Shown here: positions 44,227 through 52,236 of the stretch, in pieces
How positions within the stretch are numbered: position 1 is the first letter of the stretch
Layout: every line of letters begins with the position of its first letter
DNA from: an uncultured delta proteobacterium
GTDB taxonomy: Bacteria; Desulfobacterota; Zymogenia; Zymogenales; Zymogenaceae
Length of the DNA stretch: 64,000 nucleotides
Direction: 5' to 3'
Assembly: GCA_963792965.1 (NCBI GenBank)
Contig: CAWBYW010000007.1
Span: forward strand, 640,001-704,000
Program-made: the position numbers and the translations under genes
The notes under the pieces: generated by a model
Told to the model about the DNA's origin: nothing
The model's database searches: none
Seen by the model: the letters and a program-made list of their open reading frames with translations, nothing else

Positions 44227-45042
44227 TCAGATCCCAAGGAGCGCCTTGGGGTTGGTCTCGGTCATCTGCACAAACGTCGTCTCTTTCAGTTTGAGCTCTT
44301 TTAGCTCCTTCATGATCCTGACCCGCGTAAGCAGCGGGTAGTCGCTGCCGAAGAGGACTTTCCCTGTAAGCGCCGTATCGGCAAGCCGGATGACCCCCTC
44401 GGGAATGTAGCGCGGGGCCCATCCCGCGATGTTGAAATAGACGAAAGGATTTCGCCTCACCACCGCCAGCGCCTCCTCCCACCAGGGGTAGCCGAAGTGG
44501 GCGATGATGAGCTTGAGCCGTGGGAAGTCCACCGCCACGTCGTCCACGGGCAGGGGCCGGCAATACTTGATCTTTGTGCCGAAATGGAACTGGGTGCCGG
44601 TGTGAAAGAGGACCGGTACGTTCAACGACTGGGCGGCCTCGTAGAGGGGGTATATCTTCTTGTCGTTGATATCAAGCTCCACAAGATGCGGGAGCAGCTT
44701 GAGCCCCCTGAGCTTGAGCTCGCCTACCGCCCGCTCGAATTCCTTCAGGCCGTCCTTGCCCTTGTGAGGGTCGACGCTCGCAAAGCCGATGAGCCGGTCC
44801 GGGTATTTTGCGACGGTCTCGGCGACGAGATCGTTTGAGACCCGGTATTTGTGGATCGTCTCGGCGTCCACGGCGACGATGACCGCCTTATCGACGCCGG
44901 CGGCGTCCATGTCTTTCAGCGTATCCTCGATGGACGGAAACCCCATGTCTTTGAACATGGACTTGTAGCCCTCGGCCATCGCCTTGGGGAAGCTCTCGAT
45001 GGCCTCTTTCGTCCAGAGCTGCGAGTGGGTGTCGATGATCAT
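44227..45042 (-). CDS. Amidohydrolase_2-family protein
   Basis: IIDTH, GFASVDP, LFHTG, AHFGYPW, FGSDYP. Confidence 0.88.
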   Translation of the reverse strand: MIIDTHSQLWTKEAIESFPKAMAEGYKSMFKDMGFPSIEDTLKDMDAAGVDKAVIVAVDAETIHKYRVSNDLVAETVAKYPDRLIGFASVDPHKGKDGLKEFERAVGELKLRGLKLLPHLVELDINDKKIYPLYEAAQSLNVPVLFHTGTQFHFGTKIKYCRPLPVDDVAVDFPRLKLIIAHFGYPWWEEALAVVRRNPFVYFNIAGWAPRYIPEGVIRLADTALTGKVLFGSDYPLLTRVRIMKELKELKLKETTFVQMTETNPKALLGI

Positions 45043-45091
45043 GTAATGCTCCTTATGCATGCGAGTGAGGGAGAATCCTCCCGCTTGAGGA

Positions 45092-45593
45092 TTACCTTTT
45101 CCTGTTCAGCACCGTACTCTCAATAAAATCGGCCATTGCCCCCACGTCGGCAAGATCGATTACGCGCGCGTCCGTCTCCACGGGGCAGTCGGACGCGACG
45201 GCGATGAGGTTATCGTCCTTCGTGCAGAGGAGCTTGTCCCTGATCCCCTCGCGGAAGACCTCGATCTTGGGGTGGACGTCCTTCTTGAAACCCTCGGAGA
45301 TGATGATATCGACGTCACCGATGAACCTCTCCCTGATCTCCGAGAGCGTGAGGTCGTCGATTCGTGTCGGCGATCACGGCGATCCTGGTGGGGGAGGAGA
45401 TCACGGTCACGGCGGCGCCGGCCTCCCGCAGCCTGAAGCTGTCTTTGCCCGGCACGTCGATCTCAAAGCCGTGCACGTCGTGCTTGATCGCGCAGATCCT
45501 GAGCCCCCTTCCCACGAGCTCGGGGATCAACCGTTCAAGGTAGGTCGTCTTGCCGCTGTCGGACCACCCGACGACGCTGATGATGGGAATCAC
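45092..45593 (-). CDS. mobB: Molybdopterin-guanine dinucleotide biosynthesis protein B (indel near 45360)
   Basis: GWSDSGKTT, IKHD.H, GKDS; next frame DVDIIISEGFK..HPKIEVFR to TAA at 45092-45094. Confidence 0.88.
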
Positions 45594-46192
45594 AGGTTCT
45601 TCTCCCGGGCGATGAGCTTTGCCCGCTCGTAGTCCTGGGGGGTGTTGATGTTGAAAAAAGAGAGAAGCTCCCGATCCACGGCCAAAAGCTCCTCCTCGCC
45701 GACTAACCGCACGTTCACATCGTTCAGAAAAGAGATCGCCTGCTGCGTTCCGGAGCTAATCCTCTTCTGGACGGCCGCGAGACACCGCTTACTGTACGCC
45801 GCAAAAAGCGGCTCGTAATAGCCGTTGAAATACGGTACCGCGGCATCGCTGTCCCCTCGCGCCGCGACGAGATATTCGATAAGCTCCCGTTTAATGAAGG
45901 GCATGTCGGAGGCCGCGAAAAAGGCCGCGTTGTCCACAAGGTAGAAGAGCCCGGCGTGGATGCCCCCGAGCGTTCCGATGCCCGGCATCACGTCACGCCT
46001 GGTTTCAAGGCCGAAACGGGCGTATTTTTCCGGCTCATTGGTAACGATGATAGTGCGGGAAAACACCGATCCGAAAACATCGATTACGCGCTCGATAAGC
46101 GCTTTTCCCCCCACCTCCAGAAACGACTTATCCGTGCCCATTCGACGCGACGACCCACCCGCAAGGATCACGCCGGTCACGGATCCTTCCAT
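45590..46192 (-). CDS. mobA: Molybdenum cofactor guanylyltransferase
   Basis: ILAGGSSRRMGTDK, GTLGGI, SDMPF, EPLFAAY, FFNINTP. Confidence 0.93.
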   Translation of the reverse strand: MEGSVTGVILAGGSSRRMGTDKSFLEVGGKALIERVIDVFGSVFSRTIIVTNEPEKYARFGLETRRDVMPGIGTLGGIHAGLFYLVDNAAFFAASDMPFIKRELIEYLVAARGDSDAAVPYFNGYYEPLFAAYSKRCLAAVQKRISSGTQQAISFLNDVNVRLVGEEELLAVDRELLSFFNINTPQDYERAKLIAREKNL

Positions 46193-48745: not shown

Positions 48746-49403
48746 TTACTGAAAATGCGCGGGGAGCTCCGAGATGTCCTCGATGATGATCTCCGCCCCG
48801 GCGTCTTTCAGGTCTTTACGTGTTCCGAACCCGTAGGTAACGCCACAGGGGATGACGCCCGCGGCCCGTGCCGCCTTGATGTCGTCAGGGGTGTCTCCCA
48901 CCATTACGGTGCGGGAGGGGTCGGCGCCGAACTCGCTTCACGGCAAAGATAATTGGCTCGGGATACGGCTTCATGCTCCCCGCGGTATCGGCCCCCACCA
49001 CGAGGTCGATCATATCGGTAAGCCCCAGCCCTTCAATGACTCGGTCGGCCATATGTTTGAGCTTATTGGTCACCACCGCCTTCTTCTTGGTGATGCCGGA
49101 GAGGGTTTCGATGACCCCGGGGAACGGTTTGGTAGTAACCAGAAGGTGCTTGTCGAGATGCTCGAGGTAGACCCGGAAGGTCTCATACTTCGCGGCGCCG
49201 TCACCGCCGGAAAACCTCGAAAGGAGCTGAGATACACCTTTGCCCAGGAGGGTGGCGATACGCTCCTCGGAGAGCTCGCGAAATCCAAAGGATTTGAGGG
49301 TCTGGTTGATAGCGGCCACGAGATCTTTCTTGGAGTCAGACAGCGTGCCGTCGAGGTCGAAGAGGAAGAGGTCTATTTCCTTTTTATGGTTTTTCTTTTC
49401 CAT
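48746..49403 (-). CDS. HAD-family phosphatase (phosphoglycolate phosphatase-like), indel near 48935
   Basis: FDLDGTL, VTNK, KPYPEP; next frame MVGDTPDDIKAARAAG..VTYGFG. Confidence 0.88.
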
Positions 49404-49486: not shown

Positions 49487-49565
49487 ACTATAGCACCAAT
49501 ATAAATAAATTGTCAACATGAGAGAATACTTATTTCTTGATCGAAAGACTATTTTTTTATATACT
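49487..49565. promoter_or_regulatory. Divergent sigma70 promoters (HAD operon / arsN2)
   Basis: Minus strand TTGACA-N18-TATAGT with a TG extension; plus strand TTGATC-N17-TATACT; AT-rich gap. Confidence 0.55.
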
Positions 49566-49617: not shown

Positions 49618-50063
49618 ATGGAAGCAGTAATTACGCTCAGGAAGGCGCACAAGGACGACATCCCGTTTATCACGCGGTGCTTCAGGAAAACGAGCTTCCC
49701 TGCAGACGACGTGCCGGAAAAGATAGACTCGCTCTTCGTCGTCCTTTCCGATCGGCGGGACGTAGGCACCGGCGGGGTGGAGCTCCTCGGCCGGTACGGG
49801 CTCCTCCGATCTCTGGCAGTCCGGCACGAGGAGCGGAACAAGGGGATATGGCGCGGCGGCCGTGCGTGGGTTGGTGCGGCACGCAAAGGAGCGGGGAGTC
49901 GAGGAGCTCTACCTGCTGACGACGGACGCGGAGGCCTTCTTCGAGAAGCTCGGGTTTGAGCGAATCGACCGGGACTCCGCACCTCTGTCCCGTCAAAGAG
50001 ACGAGCCAGTTCTCGGGCCTCTGACCAGACTCGGCCGTCCTGCTGGTCAGCAGGCTCGCGTAG
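49618..50063 (+). CDS. arsN2: ArsN2-type GNAT acetyltransferase, candidate selenoprotein (TGA 50022-50024); four apparent indels
   Basis: GGVELLGRYGLLRSLAV, LYLLTTDAEAFFEKLGF, then KETSQFSGL-TGA-PDSAVLLVSRLA-TAG, matching the family's F..LCP.SA motif. Confidence 0.75.
50039..50054 (+). promoter_or_regulatory. Putative SECIS element
   Basis: CCUGCU-GGUC-AGCAGG, a perfect stem 14 nt after the UGA. Confidence 0.6.
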
Positions 50064-50156
50064 CCTCCCATGCGCCCTTCAGAGATCCCTGGGACTGGGC
50101 AGATGATTCCCCGGGAAAAGAGCGTTCTCGTTTTTCGAGAAAGCTCTCTCTATTTC

Positions 50157-50807
50157 TCACCGCTTTTCAAGATAACGCGCGATCATCCGGGCCGTTTCCC
50201 GAAAGACGCGGTCGCGGTCGATCGGTACCTCGTAGAATAAGAGGTACTGAATAATCTCATCCATAGCTTTGTGGACGACGAGCGTTGCGGCATCGGCGTC
50301 TCTCACCTCGATTCGGTCTCCATAGCGCTCTAAGAAGGCCCCGACGATAACCTTCCGTGCCTCCCGCTCGAAGGACTCATGGACCGCCCTGATCTCGTCG
50401 TCGATGAGCGAAAGGATTACGACATCTCGCTGTATCCTGAGACGGCGTGAGAGAATTCCGGCAAACCGCTTGATGACGCGGTATATGGACTCCTCGATAT
50501 CGACGGTGTCGGAGGGGTCATCGTTGGTTTGACCCAACAACTCATCTCTGAATTCATCCGAATAAGACGCAAAGATCTCGACGAAGATATTCTTCTTATC
50601 GGAAAAATATGCATATACGGTCCCGATCGAGACTCCGGCGGCGGCCGCGATATCTCGCATTCCGACGGCATCGTACCCTCTCCGGGAAAAGAGCTCAAAG
50701 GCCGCTTCCACGATCCTCGCTTTCTTTTCCCTGGCGCGATCCTGCACCGGTGTGCGTGCGGTGCTTCTTCTTCTCCCTCCCGGTTTACCTCTATTATCCA
50801 TCTCCAC
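50157..50807 (-). CDS. TetR/AcrR-family regulator
   Basis: IVEAAFELFSRRGY..MRDIAAAAGVSIGTVYAYFSDK. Confidence 0.92.
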   Translation of the reverse strand: MEMDNRGKPGGRRRSTARTPVQDRAREKKARIVEAAFELFSRRGYDAVGMRDIAAAAGVSIGTVYAYFSDKKNIFVEIFASYSDEFRDELLGQTNDDPSDTVDIEESIYRVIKRFAGILSRRLRIQRDVVILSLIDDEIRAVHESFEREARKVIVGAFLERYGDRIEVRDADAATLVVHKAMDEIIQYLLFYEVPIDRDRVFRETARMIARYLEKR

Positions 50808-51019: not shown

Positions 51020-52236
51020 ATGAAACAATTCAGGCCACACGTCGGGTACCATCATTTTCACGACGAGGTGAACATGAACTTCCAACTCAATCGTGCTCTC
51101 TCGTTCGGGGAGGGCACCGCCCCCGAGATCGACGCGATTGCCCGGAGAATAAAGAACCTCGCCGATTGGAAGCGGGAGTTTCTGGGGCTTGCCCGGATGG
51201 CGGAACGCGAAGGGAGGACGGCCGTCGCCCTGTCTTCCTATCGGCTTGCCGAGTTCTACATGACCACGGGCGACCCCGACAAAGAGCGGGCATACGATCG
51301 GTTCATCGAGCTCTTCCACGATTATATGGAGGATGAATATGCGAAGGGACGCATCATCGAAGATCGTGTAACTTACCAGCGGGGATATCTTCCCGTGATG
51401 AGACTCCCGGTGACCGAGGGGAAGAAGAAGGGTACGCTTGTGGCGCACGGCGGGTACGACTCATTTATCGAGGAGCTCTACCCATTGATGACCTATTTTC
51501 GCGATCATGGATACGAAGTATACGCCTTCGAGGGGCCGGGCCAGGGGGGATGTCTCAGGAGGTACGGACTCGTGATGACTCCCGAGTGGGAAAAACCGGT
51601 CTCCGCGATCCTCGATCATTATAAGCTCGAGCGACGTGACGCTGTTGGGAATTTCGCTCGGCGGGTATCTGGCGCCCCGCGCCGGCGGCATTTGAAAAAA
51701 GAATAGCGCGAGTAATCGCCTACGACGTGATCTACGACTTCTTCGGATGCATCGCGTCGGCTCGGGGACCTCTTTTGGCGACCGTGATACGCGCCCTCAC
51801 GGCTCTGAGGGCCGCGCCGTTGCTCAATGCGATCGTCCGTGCCCGGATGAAACACGACCCCTTCGTCTCGTGGGGAGTGAGCCAAGGATACCATGTATTC
51901 GGAGTGAAAAGGCCCTACAACTATTTTAAGGAAACGATGGAATACTCGACGAAAAAGATTTCCCGCCTCGTCATCCAGGATGTCCTTTTGCTGGCCGGCA
52001 CCCACGACCATTTCGTCCCGACCGAGATGCTCTACCGCCAGGCAAAAGCGCTCACAAGCGTCCGCTCCCTGACTTGTCGTCTCTTCACCGAGGCAGAGTT
52101 CGCCCAAAGCCATTGTCAGGTCGGAAACATCGAGCTCGCGCTCTCGTGTATCGTTGCGTGGATGGACGAGATGGGGGACGAGAAAAGAAGTGAGCGGCCG
52201 ATGAATACTTCGAGAAAGATTCGTTCACTCCGTTGA
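51020..52236 (+). CDS. Alpha/beta hydrolase (FrsA / dihydroxypseudooxynicotine hydrolase-like), indels near 51631 and 51684
   Basis: GGYDS, FEGPGQG, repaired GISLGG nucleophile elbow, HCQVGN. Confidence 0.85.

Follow-up and report, generated by a model that had tools for sequence, protein, structure and literature searches.

Within the window, the whole 64,000-nt stretch of DNA analyzed here (from genome G000), a 446-nt gene of the ArsN2-type GNAT family occupies positions 49618-50063 of the plus strand. It is flanked by a divergently oriented gene for a HAD-family hydrolase (48749-49403, minus strand), which contains one frame break, and by a convergent gene for a TetR-family regulator (50160-50807, minus strand). 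The order HAD-GNAT-TetR is common to the window and to the related genome G005, where both flanking genes are kept; the other neighbors are GHL13-like or are open reading frames without assignment. In the AT-rich intergenic region between the HAD and GNAT genes there is a sigma-70-like promoter candidate (TTGATC, a 17 nt spacer and TATACT; 49537-49565, plus strand), identified by consensus match only; two sigma-70-like consensus sites were counted, compared with a mean of 0.3 in shuffled sequences. At the other end, 3' of the TAG stop codon, a terminator-like hairpin with a T run (50112-50140, plus strand) is shared tail to tail with the TetR gene. It lies within an inverted repeat (50102-50150) that scores as terminator-like on both strands, and that also gave a chance-level Rfam microRNA match. 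We consider this repeat likely to be a shared two-way terminator. The promoter-like and terminator-like sites together fit a single-gene transcript running through the TGA codon that is the subject of this analysis.

The GNAT gene is read along a path of several frames: frame 0 (49618-49674), frame 2 (49674-49700), frame 0 again (49705-49845), frame 1 (49847-49987, 47 codons) and frame 2 (49992-50063), all on the plus strand. The frame 0 translation runs from MEAVITLRKAHKDDIPFIT... to ...RNKG, and that of frame 1 from YGAAAVRGL... to ...DRDSAPL; the brief detour into frame 2 (AVLQENELP, 49674-49700) brings back the family block LLEENGLP. The last segment in frame 2 reads VKETSQFSGL, TGA (50022-50024, plus strand), PDSAVLLVSRLA and TAG (50061-50063), just as an earlier note on this DNA had described the gene end. 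The same note had assigned the gene to the ArsN2-type GNATs, and the profile NF040501 indeed matches all three frame pieces, over positions 5-65, 64-111 and 113-131 of 133. The last of these matches comes from the 30-residue tail with the TGA taken as Cys (E 4.7e-4). The piecewise scores are 42.8, 53.0 and 19.8 bits, below the curated equivalog cut-off of the profile (125 bits), because the frame breaks split the scoring pieces. The TGA falls where the family has the conserved Cys of its C-P-x-S-A motif, and the post-UGA tail with its stop (50025-50063, plus strand) corresponds to the last beta strand in a structural model of the ortholog from G007. We conclude that the gene is very probably a selenocysteine (Sec)-containing member of the ArsN2 (N-acetylglutamate-synthase-like) branch of GNATs. 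The Sec reading of the UGA, put forward in the earlier note, is supported by orthologs with an aligned TGA, by the presence of genes for Sec machinery and by the suppression of synonymous change over the hairpin that follows the codon.

A search of 61 related genomes with an ArsN2 profile recovered orthologs in G005, G007 and G009 (133.6-137.9 bits), each with one in-frame TGA, and in G002 (105.8 bits), where a TGA is accompanied by a TAG. A search of genome contigs with one protein returned only three close relatives, all of them already found by the profile. The TGA of the orthologs lies at the same column and is followed by the same tail and a stop, their ends reading ...SEFCGL-TGA-PNSAVLLVSRLA-stop, ...SEFCGL-TGA-PDSAVLLVSRL-stop, ...SEFTGL-TGA-PDSADLLVSRLG-stop and ...SEFSVL-TGA-PGSAVLLVSRLV-stop. 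Two metagenome contigs, L083 and L084, carry the same TGA column and downstream peptide. Thus, homologs in which the TGA aligns and the sequence after it is conserved, as the earlier note had proposed looking for, do exist, in four genomes and two metagenome contigs. Counting the window copy, TGA stands at the Cys column in 7/7 clade sequences with readable DNA (window, G005, G007, G009, G002, L083 and L084), and in every one of them it is followed by P-x-S-A-[VD]-L-L-V-S-R-L and, 12-13 codons on, by a stop. Cys forms are found in the same phylum, ending in ...EEFRQLCPLSAIVMVKELT (G036) and ...TEFSLLCPETAVLMKRAI (G004). In a phylum sample of 401 genomes, searched with a threshold of E <= 1e-20, an ArsN2-like match was obtained in 23, and TGA was seen only in four genomes of genus g3; G000 falls under this threshold because its gene is split. 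At 80 metagenome loci the column holds Cys in 49 and TGA in 2, the other 29 being off-pattern (partial or more distant genes). On the minus strand of L088 and L151, opposite two distant ArsN2 loci, we also noticed ...QQFS[VD]R-TGA-P..A..., which is probably due to chance.

Protein databases show the same division. Among the 120 database homologs listed, 24 end at ...[EQ]F..L, one residue short of the column; these 24 clusters are all 58-100% identical to the G007 protein, and are named plainly "amino-acid N-acetyltransferase" or not at all. Cys occupies the column in 95 of the 96 other listed homologs, the exception being a 265-residue fusion. In the 95 Cys-form tails, the next residue is P in 92, position +3 is S or T in 89, position +4 is A or S in all 95 and position +5 is V in 69, which bears out the F..LCP.SA motif that the earlier note had attributed to the family. 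The tails after the UGA read P, x, S, A, V, as in the Cys forms, and the motif [EQ]F..x-C-P-x-S-A appears in the window as QFSGL-U-PDSA, with Sec in place of Cys. Read through with U as C, the G007 and G009 proteins score 144.5 and 141.7 bits on NF040501, and a Cys member, P0013, scores 144.3. If the UGA is read as Sec, at least 24 database protein clusters of the Sec clade are annotated 12-13 residues too short.

The perfect hairpin CCUGCU-GGUC-AGCAGG reported in the earlier note lies at 50039-50054, 14 nt past the TGA (CCTGCT 50039-50044, GGTC 50045-50048, AGCAGG 50049-50054). Including its immediate flanks, we regard positions 50037-50055 of the plus strand as a candidate bacterial SECIS element, made of a G, a bulged U, the 6-bp stem CCUGCU/AGCAGG with its GGUC loop, and a closing C. 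The 6-bp stem with a GGUC loop is present 14 nt past the UGA in 7/7 clade sequences; pairing is kept in 49/49 cells, with six of the seven pairs invariant, and the stem differs at one site only, where C-G is replaced by U-G. At third codon positions, variation is seen in 9/10 codons before the TGA and in 4/4 directly after it (codons +1 to +4, where all changes are synonymous or conservative), compared with 1/7 over the hairpin. Two folds were considered, and for neither did the seven sequences show covariation, because they hardly vary there and are nearly identical over the hairpin. RNAalifold favors the alternative fold, which buries the UGA by pairing CUCUGACC (50019-50026) with GGUCAG.AGG (50045-50054); this fold and the hairpin are mutually exclusive. 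Single-sequence folds were no stabler than shuffles (z +0.47 to -1.91), with inconsistent minimum-energy structures, and an Rfam scan of 49950-50150 gave two chance-level matches and no SECIS family.

The SECIS element of Escherichia coli fdhF is a stem-loop in the coding sequence soon after the UGA, with a G-rich GGUC loop and a bulged U. The candidate resembles it in its position within the coding sequence, its GGUC loop and its bulged U, and differs from it in stem length and spacing. A hairpin with the same GGUC loop, GCGCA-GGUC(A)-UGCGC, follows the UGA of the selD gene of G000 itself. A family search for FdhA in G000 brought up only distant molybdopterin enzymes without in-frame stops, and so no further SECIS for comparison. 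We also scanned the genome for a TGA followed by a GGUC-loop hairpin within open frames; the scan returned 415 hairpins and 24 candidates and proved too noisy, and stops and frame breaks close by hid both selD and the GNAT gene from it. In the same scan, on the minus strand of G000:C3 (reverse-complement position 1380), there is an in-frame TGA, ...VLGETEPCG-TGA-KSNQLGGLARKATYIG..., with frames open on both sides and a 6-bp hairpin with a GGUC-type loop 12 nt later; this locus may encode a further selenoprotein, one containing the motif C-G-U.

Genes for Sec incorporation are present in G000. Of the four genes named in the earlier note (selA, selB, selC and selD), three were clear: selB (363.8 bits, open over 646 aa), selD, which has an in-frame TGA of its own (product ...AAG-U-AAK...) and a frame that is otherwise open, and the tRNA-Sec (72.9 bits). 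The fourth, selA, is present yet fragmented: at G000:C16:161118-162382, outside the window, the family model matches in four or five pieces in different frames. G002, G007, G009 and G004 each have the gene as an uninterrupted frame, and in G005 it is split in two; all four TGA-bearing relatives have both a selA above the cut-off and a tRNA-Sec. The split selA of G000 may reflect either patchy assembly error or a real loss of Sec synthesis in the organism; since the gene lies in at least four frame pieces, Sec synthesis in the source organism is not assured.

The four apparent indels listed in the earlier note were all recovered by comparison with relatives, as one missing and three extra bases on the plus strand. 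A base is missing at about 49674, in the context ACGCGGTG, and one base is extra at each of 49701-49704, 49840-49846 (in AAGGGGA) and 49988-49991 (in a TCCC context). Independent sequence was available from two matching sequencing runs (0.05 share of words each), with no RNA run among the runs found for this stretch. Contigs of run X2 cover 49732-49883 and 50023-50173, and therefore the third of the four breaks, and run X1 covers parts of the neighboring genes. The first X2 contig, 98% alike, is one base shorter at 49841 and reads C instead of A at 49840; it thereby encodes ERNRGYG in frame, the family consensus. Hence the caution of the earlier note about local base quality was warranted, one of the four indels being absent from an independent contig. 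The second X2 contig is identical to the window over 50023-50063; as it is unchanged at 50023-50024, the codon ends in GA, not in GC or GT. The inspection of reads at 50022-50024 suggested in the earlier note is thus answered for its last two bases, the contig beginning at 50023.

For a background rate, frames open over 150 aa or more were taken from 120 kb of G005 sequence, a set that includes some spurious overlapping frames, and aligned to G000. Over the 25,778 residues aligned, the frame switched 17 times, or about 0.22 times per kb. With four breaks within its 446 nt, the GNAT gene exceeds this background about 40-fold. The breaks are patchy along the genome: the HAD neighbor has one, genes at about 44.8-45.6 kb and 51.1-52.2 kb of the window have one or two each, and selA has several. 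The HAD gene (48749-49403, minus strand) lies in two frames; the unassigned frames at 51020-51706 and 51727-52236 (plus strand) look like the two parts of a single gene, separated by one switch relative to a frame of G005; and one or two switches occur at about 44849-45629. The GNAT gene of G002 (L039) is itself broken about 150 nt in, where it shows eight consecutive G in place of the GGCGGGG of relatives; a genuine mutation, a phase-variable tract and an error of the assembly are all conceivable.

These breaks could mean that, in a family of true selenoproteins, the window copy is a recently decayed pseudogene, perhaps accompanied by the loss of Sec use in the organism. The excess of breaks over background speaks for decay, as do the fragmentation of selA in G000 when it is intact in G002, G007, G009 and G004, the fact that independent sequence contradicts only one break in four, and the break in the related G002 gene. 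Against decay, the frame-corrected window protein keeps 36/36 clade-invariant residues of a 25-sequence alignment at an overall identity of 53-64%, when indels accumulated under neutrality should be accompanied by many substitutions. Moreover, the TGA, the tail, the hairpin and the stop are all intact; the 98%-alike X2 contig is in frame at 49841; three of the four breaks fall within short single-base runs, as is typical of length errors; neighboring genes share in the clustering of breaks; and, as far as Sec use is concerned, the selB frame runs uninterrupted for 646 aa and that of selD is open around its UGA. We therefore regard decay of the window copy as unlikely, though with a weight that should not be neglected, and, given the surviving invariant residues and the X2 contig without the extra base, we read the four breaks as probably assembly errors for the most part. 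In any case, pseudogene status would touch the window copy alone, and the assignment of Sec to the clade would stand.

Two other readings concern the codon itself. If the TGA were an ordinary stop, the GNAT would be 12 residues shorter, and the conserved 3' stretch would be an RNA element (a terminator or regulator) or a leftover. Gene callers do end 24 database clusters at this TGA, and the stretch is able to fold, without covariation and without an Rfam SECIS match. Yet 12-13 codons pass before the next stop in 7/7 sequences and spell P-x-S-A-V as in the Cys forms, codons +1 to +4 show no changes other than synonymous or conservative ones, and the terminator-like site falls 3' of the TAG rather than of the TGA. 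Furthermore, truncation would remove the last strand of a confidently modeled fold, and the Cys member P0013, nested within the clade, has the full tail. Taken together, these observations make an ordinary stop very improbable. A base-calling error for TGC or TGT might be suspected in an assembly rich in indel errors, but the same TGA occurs in six other independent assemblies that differ at many nearby synonymous sites, and the X2 contig gives G and A at 50023-50024; we consider a miscall ruled out by these sequences for all practical purposes. Of the refuting conditions set out in the earlier note, as far as they could be tried, none overturned the reading of the UGA as Sec.

In a maximum-likelihood tree of 44 rows (leaving out P0003 and P0021, duplicates of P0001 and P0002, as well as P0046-P0122), 25 Sec-labeled rows, 22 of which are inferred solely from truncated database proteins, form one clade with a single Cys row, P0013 (support 100/99). 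The window copy and P0027 are the earliest branches of this clade. P0013 is nested within it, and its tail reads ...SSLCPNSAVPLVGRLD. The simplest account is one Cys-to-Sec change and one reversal. The Sec form would then have arisen once from a Cys ancestor, within one family of Desulfobacterota, with at least one return to Cys.

The AlphaFold model of the G007 ortholog (mean pLDDT 90.5) places U140 in the loop between a helix (134-138) and the last strand (145-150). As this strand lies downstream of the UGA, stopping at the TGA removes a strand of the core sheet. According to Foldseek, the nearest solved folds are those of N-acetylglutamate synthases (NAGS), namely 2r8v (TMq 0.80), 5yo2 and 5yge (E 1.6e-12 to 1e-10 and TMq 0.72-0.80 for these three), and of Mycobacterium tuberculosis Rv2747. 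In GNATs, the acceptor-substrate site is lined by the loop that precedes the last strand, and, to our knowledge, Sec takes the place of Cys almost exclusively at positions where the thiol is chemically active. For these two reasons, we suggest that the residue makes contact with the acceptor or reacts with it, and we think that it is not merely structural. We propose that SelB and tRNA-Sec would recode the UGA at 50022-50024 to Sec, directed by the stem-loop within the last eight codons, whose GGUC apical loop lies 20 nt past the UGA. Translation would run for 12 further codons to the TAG, finishing the last beta strand. The Sec residue, standing in for the family-conserved Cys of C-P-x-S-A in the loop before this strand, would act on the substrate as a soft ligand (e.g., for trivalent arsenic), as a nucleophile or as a redox-active residue. 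Candidate partners for a redox pair are a second Cys at +6, found in 43/95 Cys forms (about 45%) and absent from the Sec forms, and, in G005, G007 and L083, a Cys at -3 relative to U (C-G-L-U); both are too weakly conserved to define such a pair. More speculatively, the swap of Cys for Sec might mark this position as the working residue of the enzyme, one that either binds a thiophilic part of the substrate (for example, of a trivalent arsenical amino-acid analog) or takes up the acetyl group covalently, as a (seleno)ester. The mechanism of ArsN2 would then be unlike the direct transfer of ordinary GNATs, and the enzyme might even serve a pathway unrelated to arsenic, together with a PLP-dependent decarboxylase encoded nearby (see below). 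We offer this idea tentatively and think it more probably wrong than right in this form.

As far as the text of its description goes, ArsN2 is the NAGS-like clade 2 of arsN genes, which were collected by their location in ars operons, and is not itself characterized there (Nadar et al. 2019; PMC6465285). The genes described here agree with ArsN2 in that their read-through orthologs pass the equivalog cut-off and share the NAGS-like GNAT fold and the [EQ]F..x-C-P-x-S-A motif; they differ in having Sec for Cys, in lacking the +6 Cys and, for the window gene and that of G005, in lying outside an ars operon. The GNAT domains of NAGS (2r8v, 5yge and 5yo2) are the nearest folds, yet sequence similarity to them is weak (identity about 20%), the C-P-x-S-A motif is absent from the aligned part of the NAGS chains, and NF040501 far outscores the NAGS models. 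Among selenoproteins, the metalloid enzymes named in the text of a recent review are Sec forms of arsenite methyltransferase and of arsenate reductase(-like) proteins; the same text implicates many newer selenoproteins in metal or metalloid resistance, where Sec may act as a ligand (PMC13188914). The present case is likewise a change from Cys to Sec in a metalloid family of Sec-rich anaerobes, and it differs in fold and in chemistry, GNATs being acetyl-CoA-dependent.

A full-text search of the literature returned no paper linking a selenoprotein with arsN, and broader searches turned up no acetyltransferase among selenoproteins. The words "acetyltransferase" and "acetylglutamate" are absent from the main text, though the supplements may list such a family, of the 2026 review of prokaryotic selenoproteomes (PMC13188914), a 2022 review (PMC9312934), the deep-Sep paper (PMC12013277), the GOS survey (PMC2398784) and the survey of Olavius symbionts (PMC1976440). 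In the main text of the two surveys, the occurrences of "gnat" are fragments of other words such as "designated" (PMC2398784; PMC1976440). NCBIfam release 20 has no selenoprotein-specific model that matches these GNATs. The gene thus seems to represent a Sec version, not yet catalogued, of an enzyme family known in its Cys form. ArsN2 is a widespread enzyme named for arsenic resistance, with a substrate and mechanism not described in the literature we reached. Since Sec occurs mostly where the thiol is chemical, a natural Sec form singles out the C-terminal Cys for mutagenesis (U/C/S variants) and for the search for a substrate. In addition, a selenoproteome dominated by oxidoreductases would gain an acetyl-CoA-dependent GNAT.

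As for the arsenic connection, no ars gene is found among the genes flanking the GNAT at the window locus or in G005, so that an arsenic role is hypothetical and is suggested by the family name. A different neighbor recurs, a PLP-dependent decarboxylase (PF00282), which may form with the GNAT a functional pairing unrelated to arsenic. The decarboxylase gene adjoins the GNAT gene both in G007, which has the Sec form, and in G004, which has the Cys form (456-1409 of L036, minus strand; 13-1365 of L038, plus strand). It lies 2.5-3 kb from the GNAT gene in G005 and G002, and about 50 kb from it in G000, at G000:C7:638316-639641, just before the start of the window.
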